Shown here: in pieces, positions 4,084-12,613 of the stretch
Position numbering within the stretch: position 1 is the first letter of the stretch
Layout: each line of letters begins with the position of its first letter
Origin: a virus
Lineage: Duplodnaviria > Heunggongvirae > Uroviricota > Caudoviricetes
IMG/VR virus record: IMGVR_UViG_2923302340_000005
Span: 1 to 35,430 of that record
Reading direction: 5' to 3' (one strand)
Length of the DNA stretch: 35,430 nucleotides
Notes under the pieces: model-generated
What the model was told of the DNA's origin: nothing
Database searches by the model: none
Seen by the model: the letters and a program-made list of their open reading frames with translations, nothing else
Program-made: the position numbers and the translations under genes

Positions 4084-4190
4084 GAAACCAGAGCATGCAC
4101 ACACAAAAAAACCGCTTGCCATGCCGCAATCAGTCAGGTTACATTTCCGCTGCACCTCATAAAACGGGTGCCGGGTTTCGCAGCCTGCTG

Positions 4191-4395
4191 ACTACAAGAG
4201 CGCACAACCGCGCCAGCGGTTTTTTTGTGCGTACTGTATTGCCACGTTTTTTTCGCGTCAGAATTATGGCGGGGCGTACGGGGCCGACTTCGGTCGGGCC
4301 GGGATCTCTTGTAGCCGGTACTGCGAACCTCGTACGTCTCGCCACCCACAGTTTCGCAGCTCTGGATGGTGAGTTTTCACAACTTACTACAAGAG
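4191..4395. repeat. Three copies of CTACAAGAG, two direct and one inverted
   Basis: ACTACAAGAG at 4191-4200 and 4386-4395; reverse complement CTCTTGTAG at 4306-4314. The third copy contains the AAGAGG ribosome-binding site of the gene at 4406. Confidence 0.7.
4206..4226 (+). terminator. Rho-independent terminator candidate
   Basis: Stem AACCGC / GCGGTT with GCCA loop, followed by a T-run (4221-4226). Confidence 0.55.
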
Positions 4396-4405
4396 GCCAC
4401 ATATC

Positions 4406-4636
4406 ATGGCAAACCGCAAACAGCACCGCACTATCGCGGAGCGTCGTCACATCCAGACTGAAATCAACCGCAGACTTTCCCGCGCATTCCGCGTCGCTAA
4501 AATCATGCACATCAATATGCTGCATGAGCGTAGCTGCGAACTTTCAAACCTCTATTCATCCGCTGTTTTCAGCTATCTGGCGGATGATCTGCGCGAGCTT
4601 CAACAGCTCATCCAGCAGCAAAACAAACTCCATTAA
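4406..4636 (+). CDS. Hypothetical small basic protein
   Basis: 76-aa ORF, AAGAGG 9 nt upstream; preferred over the overlapping low-complexity 205-aa ORF 4095-4712. Confidence 0.5.
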   Translation: MANRKQHRTIAERRHIQTEINRRLSRAFRVAKIMHINMLHERSCELSNLYSSAVFSYLADDLRELQQLIQQQNKLH

Positions 4637-4708
4637 TTCCTGTTCCGGACCTTTCCTGCACCTTGCGGCGGGAGGCCTTCGCACATCTGTAACAAGAGGA
4701 TTGCCGCA

Positions 4709-5074
4709 ATGATTCTCGCCAACGACTTTCTTGAATACCTGCTCAACACAGAACGTGATCTTGCCGCTCGCGTGCGTGATCGTTATGACATGTACCTGAA
4801 ATCCCTGCCTGTACCGCAGCTCGCTGACGGAAAGATTGTTATTGATGGTCGCTACATGATTGACAGCCACGAGGGAAATTACAGGCTTTACCGCATTGAA
4901 GGTGGCACCCCGTCCGTTATTGGCATTTACCAGCGCCCATCCTCTGCAATTGTCGATGTGATTGCCGACAGCATCCGCATCACACATCGCCATGCCGACA
5001 CAGAAGACACCGTGCTGGAAATTCAGCGGCTGGCTGCCGTCTGCCGCGACACCCTGAATGGCATGACGAAGTAA
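4709..5074 (+). CDS. Hypothetical protein upstream of replication gene A
   Basis: 121-aa ORF with AAGAGG-type RBS. Confidence 0.55.
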   Translation: MILANDFLEYLLNTERDLAARVRDRYDMYLKSLPVPQLADGKIVIDGRYMIDSHEGNYRLYRIEGGTPSVIGIYQRPSSAIVDVIADSIRITHRHADTEDTVLEIQRLAAVCRDTLNGMTK

Positions 5075-5080
5075 ATCACT

Positions 5081-7909
5081 ATGACGGCAGAGTACATCAG
5101 GGACTGGCAACAACCGCGCCACGCAGTGGGACGTGAAGGAACGGGGATCCCCGTTCCTGAATCTGCGCTTTCCTCCTGGCTGGATGCCTACCGGGCAGAG
5201 AACGAGCGCCGCCAGGAAATGGCTGATGCGGCGTTCTCCGCCACGCCGCTGGGCAACCTGATTAATAAAAGCCTGGATGCACAGGAAAAACAGGACAAAA
5301 CCATCACACTGGCAGGAGACGCCAGAAAACAGGCACGCGGCGCGGTGGATGAAGCCATGGCCTCGCTGCGCCTGCTGCCGTCCTATCTGCGCGATCCGCT
5401 TATTCGCCACCTCTCCTTCCTGCGCAAAAAACAGGAAGTCGATCGCCGGAAAGGCAAAAAGAGCTGGCAGGCTGAACGCTACGCGCGCGGAACCCTGCGC
5501 AAAATATTCGAACGTCTGGACCGCACCGACCACCGCTGGCTGACACCGGGTTATCGCTCCCTTGCCGGACGCGAACGCCTGGATGATTTGCTTTACCTGC
5601 CGCAGCTCAACAAGCACCAGATACAGACGCTGGCCACCATGACGGCGGCGATGTTCAGCAGCACCTTCGAAAAACTCTGCGATGGCTTTGGCGCGACTGA
5701 TGGCGAACTGACCATGGATGTAACGCTGAAGGCGTATCAGATGCTGGCCCGCATGGCGTTACACCTGCACGCCATGCCTCCACATTATGACGCACTGACA
5801 ACAGACAAAGACCGGAGGAACGAACCGGACACGGAGCTGCTGCCGGGCGCAATCCTTCGCCTGACCTGTGCGGAATGGTGGAAACGCAAACTGTGGCTGT
5901 TACGTTGCGAGTGGAGAGAAGAACAACTCCGCGCCGCCTGTCTGGTTTCCAGAAAAACATCACCCTATCTGAGCCAGGACGCGTTAAGCGAGTTTCGCGC
6001 ACAGCGCGAGAAAACCCGCGACTTCCTGAAGAGCTTCGAACTGGAAAACGAAGACGGCTTCACGATTGATCTCGAGACAGTGTATTACGCGGGAGTAAGT
6101 AACCCGGTTCACCGTAAGGCAGAAATGATGGCCACCATGAAGGGACTGGAACTTCTGGCCGAAGCCCGTGGCGACAGAGCGGTGTTTCTGACTGTCACCT
6201 GCCCGTCAAAATACCACGCAACAACGGAGAACGGTCATCCGAACCCCAAATGGAACGGGGCCACCATGCGCGACTCCAGCGATTACCTGGTTAACACGTT
6301 TTTTGCGGCGGTCCGCAAGAAACTGAACCGCGACGGCCTGCGCTGGTATGGCATCCGCACGGTGGAGCCTCACCATGACGGCACCGTGCACTGGCATATG
6401 ATGGTCTTTGCTCATCCGGAAGAAATCGACAGCATCGTGGCCATCACCCGCGATATTGCCATTCAGGAAGACCGCCACGAGCTGGGCAATGATATTACTC
6501 CGCGCTTTAAGGTGGAGTATGTCGACGGCTCAAAAGGCACGCCAACCAGCTACATCGCCACCTACATCGGAAAGAACCTGGACAGCCGCGCCGTGGATGG
6601 CATCGACCCGAAAACGGGCAAACCACGCGTTGACCACGAAACCGGAAAATCAATGGCCGAGAGCGTGGAACGCGCCATCGGCTGGGCGCGCCTTCACCGG
6701 GTCCGCCAGTTCCAGTTCTTTGGTATCCCCTCCCGTCAGGTGTGGCGTGAACTGCGTCGCCTTGCCAGCCAGATGGCACGCAACCCCGAAGGCCCGCAAC
6801 GGCTGAAGGATGACGCAATGGATGCGGTTCTTGCTGCCGCTGATGCCGGATGTTTTGCCACCTACATAGAGAAACAGGGCGGCGTACTTGTTCCACGCAA
6901 AGACTACCTGATTCGCACCGCCTACGACCTCGCAGATGAGCTGAACGATTACGGCGAACAGAGCGTACAGATTTACGGGATCTGGTCGCCACTCATCGGG
7001 GAATCCTCCCGTGTGTGCACGCATCCGGATAACTGGAAGCTGGTAAGACGCAAACCGGAAGCGGAAGACAGCGCCCGCGAAAATGGTTTTGACCTTCAGG
7101 GCGGCCCTGCCGCCCCTTGGACTCGTGGCAATAACTGTCCCCGTGTACAGGAAACGGACAACAACGGGATAGAACAGCCGGAAGAACGGCCAGCACCGTG
7201 GCCGCAGCTCCCTGACGGCGTTGAAGTGAACGAATGGATGCGCTCACTGAAACGGCACGAACGCCGGGCGCTGATGCGTTCGCTTCGGCTTCGTGACAAA
7301 CAGGCAAAAAACAGCAGTGATGAAATGCAGAGCTGGACACAGAGCCGCAAACAGCAGCGGCCTTTGCCTGATAACCACGAATTACTCGCTAAAGAATGGC
7401 GGGAATCTGCCGAATCTCTCGGCCTGCATATCGGTGAACAGCAGATGCAGCACCTGTTACGGGGCGGCAGCCTGTACGTTGACGGCAGCATCATTGCACC
7501 GCAGGGATTTGAAATTGTACGCAAACCGGATACCCGCCCGGACAGCCGAATCACGCAGCTCTGGCAGCGCCTGAGCCGTAATCACGGCGTAAGCAGCACA
7601 GAGATCCGCCATAACCCGGTCGCCAGCTATCTGGAACAACTGGGGGCATCAGACCCCGAAGCCGCCGCACGTCTGGCATCCACACTTCAGCAGGACCAGA
7701 ACACCATGAAAACCCCCGTTACCGTGCTTTCTGACATGCTGCGCGCCATCCGTGACACAGAGCACGCACAGAGAATCAGTGAAACCACTGAACGCGCCCA
7801 CCGCAAAGCAGACCTGCTGCGGGGTAGCCTGACCAGTGGAAACAAAAAACAGACAGAAACGGGACTCACAAATCTCGTAAATGAGCAAAAAACGCGCCAT
7901 AAAACATGA
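5081..7909 (+). CDS. A: Rolling-circle replication initiator, P2 gpA-like (HUH endonuclease)
   Basis: 942 aa; HUH-type metal motif HWHMMVF and paired catalytic tyrosines SYIATYIGK, characteristic of P2 A / phiX174 gpA Rep proteins; carries a long charged C-terminal extension relative to P2 A. Confidence 0.85.
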   Translation: MTAEYIRDWQQPRHAVGREGTGIPVPESALSSWLDAYRAENERRQEMADAAFSATPLGNLINKSLDAQEKQDKTITLAGDARKQARGAVDEAMASLRLLPSYLRDPLIRHLSFLRKKQEVDRRKGKKSWQAERYARGTLRKIFERLDRTDHRWLTPGYRSLAGRERLDDLLYLPQLNKHQIQTLATMTAAMFSSTFEKLCDGFGATDGELTMDVTLKAYQMLARMALHLHAMPPHYDALTTDKDRRNEPDTELLPGAILRLTCAEWWKRKLWLLRCEWREEQLRAACLVSRKTSPYLSQDALSEFRAQREKTRDFLKSFELENEDGFTIDLETVYYAGVSNPVHRKAEMMATMKGLELLAEARGDRAVFLTVTCPSKYHATTENGHPNPKWNGATMRDSSDYLVNTFFAAVRKKLNRDGLRWYGIRTVEPHHDGTVHWHMMVFAHPEEIDSIVAITRDIAIQEDRHELGNDITPRFKVEYVDGSKGTPTSYIATYIGKNLDSRAVDGIDPKTGKPRVDHETGKSMAESVERAIGWARLHRVRQFQFFGIPSRQVWRELRRLASQMARNPEGPQRLKDDAMDAVLAAADAGCFATYIEKQGGVLVPRKDYLIRTAYDLADELNDYGEQSVQIYGIWSPLIGESSRVCTHPDNWKLVRRKPEAEDSARENGFDLQGGPAAPWTRGNNCPRVQETDNNGIEQPEERPAPWPQLPDGVEVNEWMRSLKRHERRALMRSLRLRDKQAKNSSDEMQSWTQSRKQQRPLPDNHELLAKEWRESAESLGLHIGEQQMQHLLRGGSLYVDGSIIAPQGFEIVRKPDTRPDSRITQLWQRLSRNHGVSSTEIRHNPVASYLEQLGASDPEAAARLASTLQQDQNTMKTPVTVLSDMLRAIRDTEHAQRISETTERAHRKADLLRGSLTSGNKKQTETGLTNLVNEQKTRHKT

Positions 7910-7985: not shown

Positions 7986-8945
7986 ATGAAAATTTGTATC
8001 GACGACGGCTCCACCAACATCAAGCTGGCATGGACTGAGAACGGCGAACGCCGCAACGCCATCAGCCCGAACAGTTTCAAGTCGGAATGGTCTGCGCCGT
8101 TCGGTGGCACGCAGCCCGCGAACTACATGCTTGATGGCGTGCGCTATGGTTTTGATCCGGTCAGCGATCGCTTTGTCCAGACGACCGACACGCAATACCA
8201 GTACAGCGATGTGAATGTAATCGCCATTCACCACGCGCTGGTCAAATCAGGCATCACACCACAGGAAGTGGATGTGGTTGTCACCCTGCCACTGAGCGAA
8301 TATTTCGACACAAACGCACAGCCGGACATGGCCAACATCAACCGCAAAAAAGCGAACGTTATGCGCCCGGTGGAGTACCAGAACGGCAAAGCATTCACTA
8401 TCCGTAACGTACGGGTTATGCCTGAATCCATTCCGGCTGGCTTTAAAGCACTGGCTGACATGAGTCCGTTTGAATCCCTGCTGATTGTGGATTTAGGCGG
8501 AACCACGCTGGATGTGGCAAAGGTTCAGGGACAACTGGCAGGTATCAGCCAGGTGTTTTGCGATCCACACGTAGGCGTTTCCCTGATGGCCGATGCCGTA
8601 CTGTCGGTGATGGCTACTAACGGTATGCGTACCAGCCACCACATCGCCAATACCATTATCGAACATCGCCATGATGAAGCCTGGCTGCGCCAGCACATCC
8701 ACAATGACGCGCATTACGCCAGCCTGATGGCGGTTATTCGTGAAAAGGAAGAAACACTGAAACAACGCGTGATCCGCGCACTGGCGGGTTTTTCGGGTTA
8801 CGGGCGGGTGATGGTTGTCGGTGGCGGGGCGGAGATTGTGGCACCCGCTATCCGCGAAGCCTGCGGAGTTAATGCGACTTTCATCGCGGACGGGGTGCCA
8901 CAGTTTGCTCTGGTTAATGGGCTGTACGCAATGGACAAGGAGTAA
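7986..8945 (+). CDS. parM: ParM/StbA-like actin-type segregation ATPase
   Basis: 319 aa; strong resemblance to plasmid R1 ParM as recalled from memory along the whole length (IDDGSTNIKL, ISPNSFK, YSDVNVIAIHHAL, VMPESIPAG, LIVDLGGTTLD, SGY..VMVVGGGAE, LVNGLY). AAGGA RBS. Confidence 0.85.
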   Translation: MKICIDDGSTNIKLAWTENGERRNAISPNSFKSEWSAPFGGTQPANYMLDGVRYGFDPVSDRFVQTTDTQYQYSDVNVIAIHHALVKSGITPQEVDVVVTLPLSEYFDTNAQPDMANINRKKANVMRPVEYQNGKAFTIRNVRVMPESIPAGFKALADMSPFESLLIVDLGGTTLDVAKVQGQLAGISQVFCDPHVGVSLMADAVLSVMATNGMRTSHHIANTIIEHRHDEAWLRQHIHNDAHYASLMAVIREKEETLKQRVIRALAGFSGYGRVMVVGGGAEIVAPAIREACGVNATFIADGVPQFALVNGLYAMDKE

Positions 8946-8949
8946 ACCA

Positions 8950-9261
8950 ATGACGACACCAACCAGACGGATAAGTTTCTATCTGAAGCCCGCCGCCGTC
9001 AAGAACGAAAGCGAAGCATGCGCCTGGCTGGACAGCCTTACACCAGAAGCCCGCAAAAGCGGCCAACGCGTGGCTTTTCTGGCCGGGCTGGCACTTCTGA
9101 AAATGAATCCGGCAGAGGCTTACCGACTGGCTGCATGGGCTGATGGCGAGGCGTTATCAGTGACACAAACCAGGACAGAACGCCCCGTGCCACAGCCAGC
9201 ACCAACCGCACAGATAACCAGTCAGATGGCCGGAAATATCCGGGCGTTATTTCCCGAATAA
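8950..9261 (+). CDS. parR: ParR-like adaptor protein (putative)
   Basis: 103 aa directly downstream of the parM-like gene; AAGGAG 7 nt upstream; resembles R1 ParR (RRISFYLKP..., VAFLAGLAL, C-terminal LFPE). Track ORF starts further upstream inside parM. Confidence 0.65.
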   Translation: MTTPTRRISFYLKPAAVKNESEACAWLDSLTPEARKSGQRVAFLAGLALLKMNPAEAYRLAAWADGEALSVTQTRTERPVPQPAPTAQITSQMAGNIRALFPE

Positions 9262-9268
9262 CACAACG

Positions 9269-9288
9269 TCAGGGCGAGTTCGCCCTGA
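9269..9288. repeat. Perfect palindrome TCAGGGCGA-GT-TCGCCCTGA, left bracket of the Ea22-like pair
   Basis: Read directly; shares its stem sequence with the palindrome at 10474-10499 on the other side of the pair. Confidence 0.6.
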
Positions 9289-9324
9289 TCTCCACCTCAG
9301 AACATAAACAAGGAGACCGACTTA

Positions 9325-9924
9325 ATGAGCGAAATCAACTATCAGGCACTGCGTGAGTTAGCAAAACAGGCAACACAGGGCGAATGGGTCGCATTTATTT
9401 CGCCGGGCAAATACGGCACGTACGCCGTGCACACACCAGGAGATAATCATCACGGAGATATTGTCGACTGGCCTGGATTCGACGAACAGAAAAACGCAGA
9501 GAACAACGCTCGTTATATCGCAGCTTTCAACCCTGAAGTAGTGCAGGCTCTGTTGGATGAACGAGAAGCCCAAAGCAAACGCATTGCAGAGCTGGAGGCT
9601 AATTTCACGGAGCTGGCAGCGGAGAATGCCGCAATGAAGCTGTTTATCAGGGGCAGTTGCTATGTATTTGATGGAGAGCAGGATGAAATATCTGACGCGT
9701 ATATCTGCGCAACAGACGGAGGAATGCCACAAACCCCAGCCACCGACGCTTTTCTGGCTGAAGTACGGGCGCAGGGCGTGGAGATGCTGGCAAAAAATCA
9801 TCAGAGTATCGTCAATGCACTTAAGGGAGATTCTTTATTTTCTGATGATGAATACCGACATGCAGCTATTGTTTCCGCAGCTGTATATTTCGCCGCAGAG
9901 CTTCGCAAAGGAGGCAGCCAGTGA
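9325..9924 (+). CDS. Ea22/Ead-like family protein, paralog 1
   Basis: 199 aa; N-terminus MSEINYQALRELAKQA and ALLDEREAQSKRIAELE coiled-coil motif; AGGAG RBS. Confidence 0.55.
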   Translation: MSEINYQALRELAKQATQGEWVAFISPGKYGTYAVHTPGDNHHGDIVDWPGFDEQKNAENNARYIAAFNPEVVQALLDEREAQSKRIAELEANFTELAAENAAMKLFIRGSCYVFDGEQDEISDAYICATDGGMPQTPATDAFLAEVRAQGVEMLAKNHQSIVNALKGDSLFSDDEYRHAAIVSAAVYFAAELRKGGSQ

Positions 9925-10460
9925 GCAAAATTGACTATCAGGCACTACAAATGGCAGCAGAACGTGCAATTCCGGCAATGGAACGCCTGTTAATATTGCC
10001 AGTTGATGATGATTTGTTAAGCGAACAGGAACTTAAAGATTACGGTGTGGATATTGACGCGATCAACACCTTCAGAATTCTGGCTGGACCGGAAGACATG
10101 CTGGCACTGCTGGATGAACTGGAAACAGCAAAAAAACGCATCGCTGAACTGGAAAAAATCGCCACTGACTATGCACTTAAATTCCAGAAAGCACAGGACG
10201 CATTAAAGTATGCCGCTTTGCTGCATAGCAGGACGGCGCAACAAACAAATAATTTTGCAGTATCGCTTCCGGACATAAGCGAATATTTCATTAATGACGT
10301 ATTTCAGCCCTTGCGATACGAGCGGGATGTTGAAAGAGCCATCATAAAGGCTGGCGGAAAAGCATTGTGGCAGGAGAAGCACGAGGAAAGAACGCATCAG
10401 CTAAGTGATGTAAATAGTGGATGGTTATGCCCACTGACAGAAGGTAAAAAGAACACCTGA
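9921..10460 (+). CDS. Ea22/Ead-like family protein, paralog 2
   Basis: 179 aa; GTG start overlapping the upstream stop (GTGA), AAGGAGG RBS; N-terminus MSKIDYQALQ and ALLDELETAKKRIAELE; divergent C-terminus. Confidence 0.55.
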   Translation: MSKIDYQALQMAAERAIPAMERLLILPVDDDLLSEQELKDYGVDIDAINTFRILAGPEDMLALLDELETAKKRIAELEKIATDYALKFQKAQDALKYAALLHSRTAQQTNNFAVSLPDISEYFINDVFQPLRYERDVERAIIKAGGKALWQEKHEERTHQLSDVNSGWLCPLTEGKKNT

Positions 10461-11026
10461 TTTCCTCTCAAACCAGGGCGATAATCGCGCATCGCCCTGC
10501 TGCACAATAGTGCACAAATTTGCACAATTTTTTTGAACGACTTTTTGCCCTTCCAGCCCGCGTGGCGGCTGGATCCGTCAAGGATCCGTGCGTGCACAAA
10601 AAAACGCGTTTTTTCTGCGCGCAGGTGACGGGGGAACAGCCCGCGCTTCAGGGGGTAAATAGCATTCCCTGAACGATGTCGCAGAGACACAACAGAATGG
10701 CCATATTTCTCACGCTGAGCATGAAAAAGGCGTGAGGGCTTTTGATTTGATGGGGTGAAAGGTAAGGCCGTCAAAATCGCACTGAGGCAGCGAGGACATA
10801 CAGTCAACGTGGTGGGATTGCGTAAGAGTCTGACCGTCGATGGTGGCGATAAACTGGAAGGCGTCGTGAAATTATCTGATTGATACAGGAGCTGGAGAGC
10901 CGGGGCATAAATTTTTTATGCCCCGGCGAAGCAGCAGACAAGCGAAGCGCGTCAGTGATGCGGCACCTTGCCGACCACACTTCATAAGTGCAAAATACGA
11001 GCAAAGAAATCAATGGAGGCTGTTTT
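10461..11026. other. Structured noncoding region; candidate cos packaging site
   Basis: No credible ORF on either strand. Contains palindrome CAGGGCGAT / ATCGCCCTG (10474-10499), TGCACAA three times at exact 10-bp spacing (10501-10527) plus a fourth at 10593, palindromes AAAAAACGCGTTTTTT (10599-10614) and CTGCGCGCAG (10615-10624), a GACGGGGGAA segment (10627-10636) reminiscent of the P2/186 cohesive-end sequence, and a 12-bp perfect stem CCGGGGCATAAA / TTTATGCCCCGG (10900-10926). Confidence 0.4.
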
Positions 11027-11551
11027 ATGGTCATTAATTACAAGCAGTTACGAGAAAAACGAGATCAGGTAAAGGAGAGTTTTCGCCGCAATGAAGACCT
11101 GACCCCACTTGTACGAATTGCCCAGGGAATTGTTGATGCTTATGAAATCTCTCTGGAGCTGCCATCACAGACATGGACGGATAGCGACGGTAATCGCCAG
11201 CATTACGTTTCATGCGGACTGGAAACAACTGAAGGGTTTCGCAGAATGCCTTTATCTCAGATCCCTGCCGCTACCCCCAAAGCAAGGGGCGGCAATGATG
11301 AGCGAAAACTGATTTTCAGCATTGAGACAGTGGTTGACGACACACCTGGCGAAGTCGCCTTCGTGCATACTCCTGTTTCGATCGCAATGTATAACGATGA
11401 AATACAGGTTCGCGTTAATAATAATATCGTGCCACTTAAAGAAGGTAATTCACCATACACCACCGTTTGTGAAGCCATTCAATATTACGTTCTCTCTGAA
11501 ATTGATAATCTCAAGCCTGACGGCACCCAGAAAATGGTTCAACTCTGGTAA
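11027..11551 (+). CDS. Hypothetical accessory protein
   Basis: 174 aa from ATG 11027 with GGAGG 7 nt upstream; no recognisable family; convergent with portal Q. Track ORF starts at GTG 10988. Confidence 0.55.
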   Translation: MVINYKQLREKRDQVKESFRRNEDLTPLVRIAQGIVDAYEISLELPSQTWTDSDGNRQHYVSCGLETTEGFRRMPLSQIPAATPKARGGNDERKLIFSIETVVDDTPGEVAFVHTPVSIAMYNDEIQVRVNNNIVPLKEGNSPYTTVCEAIQYYVLSEIDNLKPDGTQKMVQLW

Positions 11552-11556
11552 AAAGG

Positions 11557-11583
11557 ACAGCCCCAATCACGGGGCTGTTTTTT
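11557..11583. terminator. Hairpin plus T-run between the convergent accessory gene and Q
   Basis: ACAGCCCC-AATCAC-GGGGCTGT followed by TTTTTT on the plus strand; the Q stop codon lies in the loop. Confidence 0.55.
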
Positions 11584-12613
11584 CATCAAGAAGAGCATAA
11601 GAATTAAAACGGATCACCTCTTCGCCAAGCCAGTCATTGATGTGCTTCATGGCCTCCATAACGGGCATCAGCTCGTTAATTGCATAAACCCGCGCGGCCT
11701 TCTCCACATCACCAAACGCACTTTTTTCGCCCGGCATCGCCCCCATCAGTTGCGGTGGAACACGGTGCGCAGCCAGCACATCATCACGGGATGCCGCCTT
11801 AACATTCATGAACTCATCTTTTGCGGTGATCTGCTGGAACGGCAAAATTTGCACCCCCTCTTTCCCCCCGTTGGGCGCATGGATGAGCACGTTTTTAAAC
11901 GCACCACCACCACGCGCACCCTGTAACGTTTCTTTCAGGGAGTCCATGCTTTCGCGGTTTACCTGCGCTGCACCGATATAGATGATGCACCCGGCGTGGG
12001 ATCCATTGTCGTAATACAGTTTTCTGAACATGTCCGCCGAATGAGACAGGCTGGCCGAGAGTAATGCGCCAAGATATTCCGGCATGCCGTAAATTTCCTG
12101 GTTAATGTCCGGATTCATCAGGTGGCACACTTTGCCAGGGCGAAACTGAAACGCATCCTTGCCATCCTGCACATACCACCATGATTCAAGATCGCTTCCG
12201 CGTCGCATGTATTTCGCCAGGGCGTGCCGTAATTTAAGCGGTTCGCCGAGCATATTGCTTCGAAGCTCAAGAAATGCGTTACCGAACACAAACCAGTCCA
12301 GCGCCAGCGCCGAGAAATCCTGCCGGGAAAGCAGCGGGTGCGGAATATAGCAACCGAGCAATACATTGCGCTTAAAGTAAAGCGCAGACTGATGCCAGGA
12401 CGTTTGCCGGGCAGCTCTTGCCAGACCGTACCAGTCCACCGGGGTTTCATACCACCGCCCGTTATCAGCACAGTACATATTGTCCAGCAAATCATGCCCG
12501 GTCAGGCGATAAGGACCATCAAATGTGAATGCACTGAGCGACGATTCTTTCCTGAGCGCATCAGCGAGATCAATGCGTGAACTCATGCGCACTTTTTTAT
12601 TTTTTCTGCTCAT
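11567..12613 (-). CDS. Q: Portal protein, P2 gpQ-like
   Basis: 348 aa; size, position and leftward orientation with P as in P2; start overlaps the P stop by 1 nt. Confidence 0.85.
   Translation of the reverse strand: MSRKNKKVRMSSRIDLADALRKESSLSAFTFDGPYRLTGHDLLDNMYCADNGRWYETPVDWYGLARAARQTSWHQSALYFKRNVLLGCYIPHPLLSRQDFSALALDWFVFGNAFLELRSNMLGEPLKLRHALAKYMRRGSDLESWWYVQDGKDAFQFRPGKVCHLMNPDINQEIYGMPEYLGALLSASLSHSADMFRKLYYDNGSHAGCIIYIGAAQVNRESMDSLKETLQGARGGGAFKNVLIHAPNGGKEGVQILPFQQITAKDEFMNVKAASRDDVLAAHRVPPQLMGAMPGEKSAFGDVEKAARVYAINELMPVMEAMKHINDWLGEEVIRFNSYALLDEKTAP

Follow-up and report, generated by a model that had tools for sequence, protein, structure and literature searches.

The window considered here is the whole 35,430-nucleotide stretch of the virus record IMGVR_UViG_2923302340_000005 (Caudoviricetes), and all positions below are those of the window. 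It holds a complete prophage of the P2 family, with an integrase gene at 1-1023, the gpA gene at 5081-7909 and then a P2-type virion module. The closest relatives of this prophage are the P88-like phages (genus Xuanwuvirus, Peduoviridae). We deal with an open reading frame (ORF) at 11027-11551 on the plus strand, which encodes a protein of 174 amino acids (aa) belonging to the phage family PHROG 5091. A preliminary description of the same DNA, made from its letters, had placed this ORF between a candidate cohesive-end site (cos) and the portal gene and had supposed that it might serve defence or exclusion. The placement is confirmed, cos being assigned by homology to 10624-10642 (see below), while the supposed role has to be weighed against several others.

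The coding sequence starts with an ATG at 11027 and ends with a TAA stop codon at 11549-11551. The same 525-nt coding sequence has been called by the RefSeq annotators in related prophages. The good ribosome-binding site that had been claimed for it is a Shine-Dalgarno sequence, GGAGG (11016-11020, plus strand), placed 6 nt before the ATG; its GGAG is kept in the alignment of the upstream regions. Further upstream lies a putative sigma-70 promoter (10968-10996, plus strand), composed of a -35 element TTGCCG (10968-10973), a 17-nt spacer and a -10 element CAAAAT (10991-10996). It agrees with the consensus at 8 of 12 positions and falls under the threshold of a simple promoter scan. In six upstream regions taken from ORFs that are 60-97% identical, the two hexamers have been retained at their 17-nt spacing, although the sequence around them is scrambled. 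Indeed, four conserved islands stand out when the upstream regions of the E. coli and Salmonella orthologues are compared, namely cTTG(C/T)C, then, after exactly 17 nt, CAAAAT, then GGAG and finally the ATG. The positions of the -35 and -10 elements predict a transcript start near 11003. An in-frame GTG at 10988 is not the start codon, since the indels found between the -10 element and the ATG among the orthologues are not multiples of three. No Ogr-type late-activator motif (consensus TGT-N12-ACA) was seen upstream of the ORF on inspection by eye. Because the -35 and -10 elements are conserved and no such motif was seen, the promoter should be able to fire unaided in a lysogen.

Past the stop codon lies a bidirectional intrinsic terminator (11552-11584, both strands). 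It is made of an A-tract that begins five bases past the stop, a G+C-rich stem of 8-9 bp with its arms at 11557-11564 and 11571-11578 (hairpin 11557-11578), and a run of six T residues. The preliminary description had given the gene a terminator of its own, and the element found looks active on both strands. The folding energy is -21.8 kcal/mol on the plus strand (z -5.25) and -19.2 kcal/mol on the minus strand (z -4.3), none of 200 shuffles folds as well, and the minus-strand version then continues with CCTTTTTAC. Strong folding on both strands, with a T-run on each, indicates that the terminator can act both ways. It is predicted to end the ORF transcript and, on the opposite strand, that of the P-Q late operon. 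The portal gene, a gpQ homologue (11567-12613, minus strand), is convergent with the ORF, and its last 4-6 codons lie within the terminator; the 3' arm and the T-run supply the codons for EKTAP, with which the portal protein ends. The Pfam domain Phage_portal is recorded for the portal genes of the orthologous loci. As had been judged by eye, the G+C content of the ORF is low: 45.5% (43% at third codon positions), against 52.9% for the window and 52% (58% at third positions) for the portal gene. This places the ORF at the 7.7th percentile of 525-nt windows.

On the other side, the ORF is preceded by a conserved non-coding block of 455 bp (10501-10955), which is 92-97% identical in 11 P88-like phages. 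The block is conserved whether the ORF is present or absent and whatever the flanking cargo, and it separates the variable cargo on the gpA side from the cassette that carries the ORF. Among 5426 complete E. coli genomes, it occurs in 1134, at 1308 places altogether. Within it, a candidate 19-nt cohesive-end core, GGTGACGGGGGAACAGCCC (10624-10642, plus strand), equals cosL of P2 at 13 of 19 positions and has the same orientation and lies on the same side of the portal gene. The P2 cos 19-mer as such is absent from the window when up to 3 mismatches are allowed. A more distant P2-like prophage, L018, has only this core in common with the window. Its version, GGTGACGGGGGGAAAGCCC, which lies ~180 nt from the L018 portal gene, equals P2 at 15 of 19 positions and bridges the window and P2. 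The 19-mer of the window is also found, identical, in two Salmonella loci (L022 and L024) whose flanks have diverged. In view of the P2 match, the bridging variant and the retention of the 19-mer in the Salmonella relatives, we take 10624-10642 to be the cos core on grounds of homology; the ORF lies ~384 nt from it on the portal side. In P2, the interval from cosL (1-19) to the Q stop codon (187) contains the tQ terminator only, in agreement with the earlier statement that P2 has no gene at this place. Just upstream of the cassette, the window carries a perfect hairpin with 13-bp stems (10899-10927; -31.6 kcal/mol, z -6.8, no U-tract). This hairpin is conserved in the alignments and is found ~26 nt past the portal stop in cassette-free relatives.

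Several other observations concern the cos block. Between cos and the cassette there is a conserved ORF of 42 aa (10755-10883, plus strand), the equivalent of P88 gp22, which several phage records annotate; the hairpin with 13-bp stems comes after it. Along the left margin of the block, at a distance of 30-120 nt from the cos core, the heptamer TGCACAA occurs four times on the plus strand (10501-10527 and 10593-10599), three of the copies being spaced by exactly 10 bp (10501, 10511 and 10521). These account for four of the five copies in the 35-kb window and may be cosB-like binding repeats for terminase or a host factor. In E. coli S1-CAM-02-A, the related locus L019 (~5000-5080) is ~95% identical to the window up to ...CTGCGCGCAGG, diverges exactly at the cos core and matches again near the hairpin, a pattern suggesting that recombination took place at cos. 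A search of the weak E. coli matches for P4-like satellites with this cos led to other P2-like prophages instead.

The stretch that separates the cos block from the portal gene is a cassette of ~630 bp (10956-11584, plus strand; 45.8% G+C). Rfam reports no RNA family in or near it. Four related GenBank phage records carry the ORF (vB_EcoM-705R2, vB_EcoM-569R5, PhiR44_2 and an ST131 prophage), whereas in the seven others of the 11 related phages (P88, P88_4B11, Chuche, Shae_phiSM, 520873, 500465-2 and 503458) alignment and blastn coverage place the cos block directly against the portal gene, the cassette being absent. The ORF is present in 396 of the 5426 complete E. coli genomes, at 402 places that are all chromosomal and all annotated as hypothetical. 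Set against the 1308 places of the cos block, this corresponds to ~31% of the P88-type cos loci. The carriers include clinical E. coli, for instance the ST131 strain JJ1886. The preliminary description had asked for such a comparison of presence and absence across related prophages; judged from the outcome, the gene is dispensable for the phage. It had also named confident homology to a structural or packaging protein conserved in all relatives as the finding that would speak against a cargo gene. What was found is a gene missing from P88 and six other phages, whose product resembles no structural family in Pfam, PHROGs, PDB or BFVD.

The junctions of the cassette bear on how the two states arose. 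The left junction falls at 10955/10956, directly behind the bases that serve P88 as its portal stop codon. On the right side, the DNA is non-homologous up to ~11584; homology in the portal gene then resumes with ~25 nt that are far more diverged than the rest. The portal protein terminates in LLDEKTAP here and in LLDTQPTS in P88 (portal 3' end 11567-11610, minus strand). Over the ~10 portal codons before this end, most differences between phages with and without the cassette are synonymous. Since the portal 3' end differs with the state of the cassette, the latter has come together with a foreign portal 3' end. From the junction pattern, the plus and minus states therefore look like old alleles that are swapped by recombination in the flanks, rather than the result of a recent insertion.

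Orthologues of the ORF that are 97, 85, 84, 62 and 60% identical come from E. coli and Salmonella. Every one of them adjoins, in convergent orientation, a P2-type portal gene, and the cargo on the gpA side is different each time. Pairwise ratios of non-synonymous to synonymous substitution rates (dN/dS), computed against orthologues of 60-99% identity, range from 0.07 to 0.22. These are the values of a real protein-coding gene under purifying selection. The divergence of the protein roughly tracks that of the virion genes; the Salmonella protein is 62% identical, against 66-78% for portal, terminase, scaffold and capsid. Mosaic exceptions are provided by two loci, L025 and L026. In these E. 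coli P2-like prophages, a divergent second paralogue of 167 aa without the TVVDD motif is encoded between cos and the orthologue (L025, 5354-5857; L026, 5355-5858). According to hhalign, it is related to the family with a probability of 98.8%.

The preliminary description had regarded the ORF as an orphan with no recognisable family. This stands as far as Pfam, NCBIfam and PADLOC are concerned, where neither the ORF nor its 31 relatives has a match. It does not stand for PHROGs, nor with respect to abundance, given the E. coli counts above. The protein matches PHROG 5091 over its full length (E=3.2e-66, residues 1-168 against positions 1-164 of a profile of 164), as do all 31 aligned relatives. 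PHROG 5091 is a catalogue family only, with the function given as unknown. A Pfam match to LYR (E=0.05) was rejected as below the cutoff. When 1.8 billion representative proteins were searched with HMMER, only 35 had E<=0.001; a few of these are false matches to repeat proteins, and among the 35 is a set of proteins of 155-188 aa with 25-38% identity. Full-length homologues are found down to 25% identity in six genera. By profile search, the hosts of the family are E. coli, Salmonella, Serratia, Yersinia, Xenorhabdus and Providencia, and all members are annotated as hypothetical. On present evidence, the family is restricted to temperate phages of Enterobacterales. Its conserved motifs are AY..SL.L....W.D..G....YV..G, F.I.TV(V/I)DD(S/T)P and a C-terminal helix with VCE.IK..VL.

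None of the distant members resides in a P2-like phage. Four other slots are occupied instead: between the Q antiterminator and holin genes (L010, L011, L031 and L032); after the spanin gene (L012); between the tail assembly chaperone and tape-measure genes of a myovirus lineage, in Xenorhabdus and elsewhere (L008, L014 and L020); and after an Arc/Mnt/Ant island, ahead of tail/baseplate genes (L033, with a similar arrangement downstream of an anti-repressor gene in L013). No conserved partner gene was found among the family loci. In all 13 distant loci, a hairpin rich in G+C and followed by a T-run lies 16-72 nt past the stop codon, and the sequences of these terminators are similar (..GGCCTTTTTTAT). 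This suggests that gene and terminator move together as a unit among unrelated temperate phages. In the three loci of the myovirus lineage, the intrinsic terminator of the homologue lies within the tail operon (L008, ~6480-6545; L014, ~6490-6550; L020, ~6500-6590).

The distant members (L008, L009, L010-L014, L020 and L031-L033) also share a conserved leader ~45 nt upstream of the ATG; it comprises 10-11 codons in frame with the gene and has a Shine-Dalgarno sequence and start codon of its own (GGTGATAAAATG...). The length of the leader is in every case divisible by three, and this points to a longer N-terminus in the distant clades. In the window, the corresponding position, 30 nt ahead of the ATG, is taken by the -10 element CAAAAT.

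The protein has an isoelectric point of 5.0, is hydrophilic (grand average of hydropathy -0.5) and has a charged N-terminus unlike a signal peptide. Profile libraries and sequence features reveal no signal peptide, membrane segment or toxin/effector domain. Remote homology and structure prediction, both recommended in the preliminary description, have yielded a family (PHROG 5091) and a confident fold, but no convincing match to a known fold. The AlphaFold2 model, based on an alignment of 31 sequences, has a mean predicted local distance difference test score (pLDDT) of 80.9 and a predicted template modelling score (pTM) of 0.71. It consists of an N-terminal hairpin of two helices (residues 5-22 and 26-42), an antiparallel sheet (~49-135) and a C-terminal helix (145-159). 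Fold comparisons point to the FP domains of PI31/Fbxo7, actin-capping protein, the C-terminal domain of TnsE, Imm52/TriTu immunity proteins and type III secretion chaperones, all with 3-13% identity. Foldseek finds nothing at E<=0.001 in either PDB or BFVD. A sequence search of PDB also returned designed helical-repeat proteins (5cwb and others, with E down to 1e-10). These were rejected as spurious because their scores are summed over idealised helix-loop-helix units that resemble residues 125-168 and because they vanish when a broader family profile is used. Comparisons by hhalign with P1 DarA, phi80 TaiEcA and phiCTX Ctx are negative, and neither sequence similarity nor strong fold similarity to a DarA-like internal head/anti-restriction protein was found. 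The invariant positions are mainly aromatic or aliphatic core residues and turn glycines, together with D52 and D104; nothing among them resembles a catalytic residue set. We infer that the product is a cytoplasmic, non-enzymatic protein of two-layer alpha+beta architecture that acts by stoichiometric binding to a partner.

The region between gpA and gpQ is a hotspot of P2-like phages that carries defence genes, and the ORF lies within it (Rousset et al. 2022, PMC9122126). Its earlier assignment to the cargo of this hotspot is therefore upheld: it is an optional gene of the cos-proximal variable region, and accessions are included in the hotspot table of that study (Table S5), where the protein is listed only as 'hypothetical' (PMC9122126). 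The ORF fits no system described as defence-active in the main text of the same work (PMC9122126). On the gpA side of the hotspot, the interval 7986-10460 (plus strand) holds a ParM/StbA gene, a small ORF where the Plasmid_stab_B partner gene would be expected and a tandem pair of Ead/Ea22-like genes, and no recognised defence system was found there. The partition pair is present in about a quarter of P2-like phages (Rousset et al. 2022, PMC9122126).

Several known systems resemble the ORF in layout or setting. In the Pseudomonas phage phiCTX (Peduoviridae), as in the window, cosL is followed by ~340-380 nt and then by a single plus-strand gene, ctx, which has its own -35 and -10 elements and terminator(s) and is convergent with Q. 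Like the ORF, ctx is dispensable cargo of lower G+C content, and its promoter and terminators are annotated. The products are dissimilar: Ctx has 286 aa, as opposed to a cytoplasmic protein of 174 aa without toxin features, and hhalign gives a probability of 0.1% for a relationship. Ctx is a pore-forming toxin that acts on eukaryotic cells. The old and tin genes of P2 are likewise non-essential, have their own promoter and belong to the cos-proximal variable region of a P2-family prophage (Rousset et al. 2022, PMC9122126). They differ from the ORF in lying on the right-end, gpA side of cos and in encoding proteins of unrelated sequence, the ATPase-nuclease Old (586 aa) and Tin (253 aa).

A third parallel is offered by the Tai genes of phi80, other prophages, phage-inducible chromosomal islands and P4-like satellites, which are single-gene morons beside the packaging module and cos (PMC11364771). 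Tai is made constitutively from the prophage and binds a structural protein of the invader rather than acting by catalysis (PMC11364771). TaiEcA (orf63 of phi80, 204 aa) is dissimilar to the ORF protein (hhalign probability 0.05%), and no gene resembling an anti-Tai adjoins the ORF. We consider a binding mechanism of the Tai type, by analogy, the most likely kind for the ORF product, and we do so tentatively. Finally, the morons of the lambdoid phages HK97 and HK022 are extra genes that have their own promoter and terminator, differ in base composition and separate two genes which are neighbours in related phages. These morons were reportedly described by Juhala and Hendrix. The ORF departs from them in being at the cos-portal junction of a P2-family genome and in that the insertion has remodelled the C-terminal codons of the portal gene.

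The features that define a moron are nevertheless found here in silico: the flanking genes are adjacent in relatives, the base composition is distinct, and the gene has a terminator and a promoter of its own, the latter recognised by conservation only. We therefore regard the unit of promoter, Shine-Dalgarno sequence, single gene and bidirectional terminator as very probably an optional, self-expressed moron. What such a moron does for its carrier is a separate question. The interpretation that we favour, with a probability of about 0.35, is that the ORF product is an exclusion or defence factor expressed by the prophage. It would bind either a protein of the superinfecting phage or a host factor that this phage needs, and the binding would block the development of the superinfecting phage. 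The proposal draws on the position in the gpA-Q hotspot, on the conserved promoter of sigma-70 type and on the analogy with Old/Tin and with morons of the Tai type.

Several facts weigh against this proposal. Divergence at the pace of the virion genes suggests a long residence, unlike defence cargo, which is typically swapped rapidly. All P2-like loci examined hold nothing but members of PHROG 5091 (none, one or two) in the slot between cos and portal. PADLOC-DB v2 (dated 2023) gives 0 matches for the ORF and its 31 relatives, and only 15-32% of the unknown P2 proteins carry a defence signal by machine learning (PMC13586616). Moreover, in the non-P2 phages the gene runs in the late-gene direction and is often the first one after Q. 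This predicts strong lytic expression, which fits a role in counter-defence or in the life cycle of the phage at least as well.

Counter-defence is the first of these alternatives. The product would then be a small inhibitor made for the benefit of the phage itself, neutralising an immune system of the host or of a resident prophage, such as one that late structural proteins trigger. Synthesis of the inhibitor from a constitutive promoter at the left genome end would begin as soon as the DNA has entered and, in the lambdoid relatives, would reach a high level late. Such a role suits a small, acidic, soluble single-gene protein without enzymatic motif whose divergence tracks the virion module and whose gene, in the lambdoid relatives, comes first after the Q antiterminator in the late-gene direction. 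It also suits the tandem paralogue of L025 and L026, as tandem diversification is common at anti-defence loci. However, flanking terminators and a conserved promoter of housekeeping type are likewise characteristic of genes that a lysogen expresses, and very few anti-defence genes were detected in P2-like prophages (De Sousa et al. 2026). On balance, we find this role rather unlikely. A more far-reaching version is doubtful: PHROG 5091 would be a new class of phage protein inhibitor with a fold not among the solved structures, carried as a portable promoter-gene-terminator unit and either countering immune sensors of late structural proteins (portal, terminase and capsid) or packaged and injected like DarA. 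If it held, the tandem divergent paralogues of P2-like phages would reflect an arms race.

Alternatively, the protein could be an accessory of the phage's own life cycle, that is, a non-essential helper in head, tail or packaging assembly, in lysis timing or in regulation, or a protein that is packaged and injected. In all cases the neighbours of the gene are late, virion or lysis genes; in P2-like phages its place beside the portal gene is stable down to 60% identity, and it evolves at a rate similar to that of structural genes. Yet ~69% of the P88-type loci and 7 of the 11 related GenBank phages, P88 included, do without it; the slots used in different phage types are not equivalent, the gene keeps its own terminator even within a tail operon, and the product resembles no known morphogenetic protein. 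We hold this explanation to be distinctly unlikely, and a role in lysogenic conversion, by which the product would alter the physiology, stress tolerance or virulence of the lysogen and not act on phages, to be more improbable still. Slot and promoter-gene-terminator layout are those of phiCTX ctx, and clinical E. coli carry the gene widely, JJ1886 and other ST131 strains among them. These points are countered by a protein that has none of the signal peptide, membrane segment or toxin/effector domain looked for and no similarity to Ctx, and by a family that does not extend beyond phages and whose genes have been observed in phage surroundings only. That the ORF has arisen by chance or is a decaying remnant without function, as its purely hypothetical database annotation might allow, is hardly credible in view of the dN/dS of 0.07-0.22, full-length homologues down to 25% identity in six genera, the confident AlphaFold2 fold and conserved expression signals.

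Elsewhere in the window, at the start of an 'ash family' ORF of the early region (4095-4712), Rfam reports two matches above the gathering score, the Hfq-binding small RNA isrK (66.7 bits) and C4 antisense RNA (81.1 bits), at 4152-4226 and 4262-4349 on the plus strand. Together they may represent a control module of the P1/P7 C4 type, acting by antisense RNA, within a P2-family prophage.

With regard to the literature, the ORF is already catalogued, as PHROG 5091, as a RefSeq hypothetical protein and as a row of Table S5 in the study of Rousset and colleagues. No paper that names it by accession or family identifier was found in the library searched, and the paper on LF82 prophage morons, that on urinary coliphages and the DefensePredictor supplements contain nothing on it. 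The existence of a cos-portal sub-slot dedicated to one family, and the terminator-bounded travel of that family, appear to be undescribed as far as we have found.

A specialist would not be surprised by a gene of this kind in such a place. It is nonetheless a clean and abundant candidate, present in ~7% of the complete E. coli genomes, ST131 strains included. No defence hotspot of P2-like phages is better validated than the one in which it lies, but its own place is on the portal side of cos; among the occupants of the cos-portal sub-slot, the toxin gene of phiCTX alone has been characterised. The compact cassette (~630 bp), with its apparent native signals, and the existence of natural plus and minus phages (PhiR44_2 and vB_EcoM-705R2 versus P88) make an attractive experimental target. 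If no phenotype emerged, the result would calibrate how often single unknown genes of the hotspot are defensive. If a role in defence or counter-defence proved true, a new single-gene family with an unassigned fold would be added to the repertoire of phage conflict.

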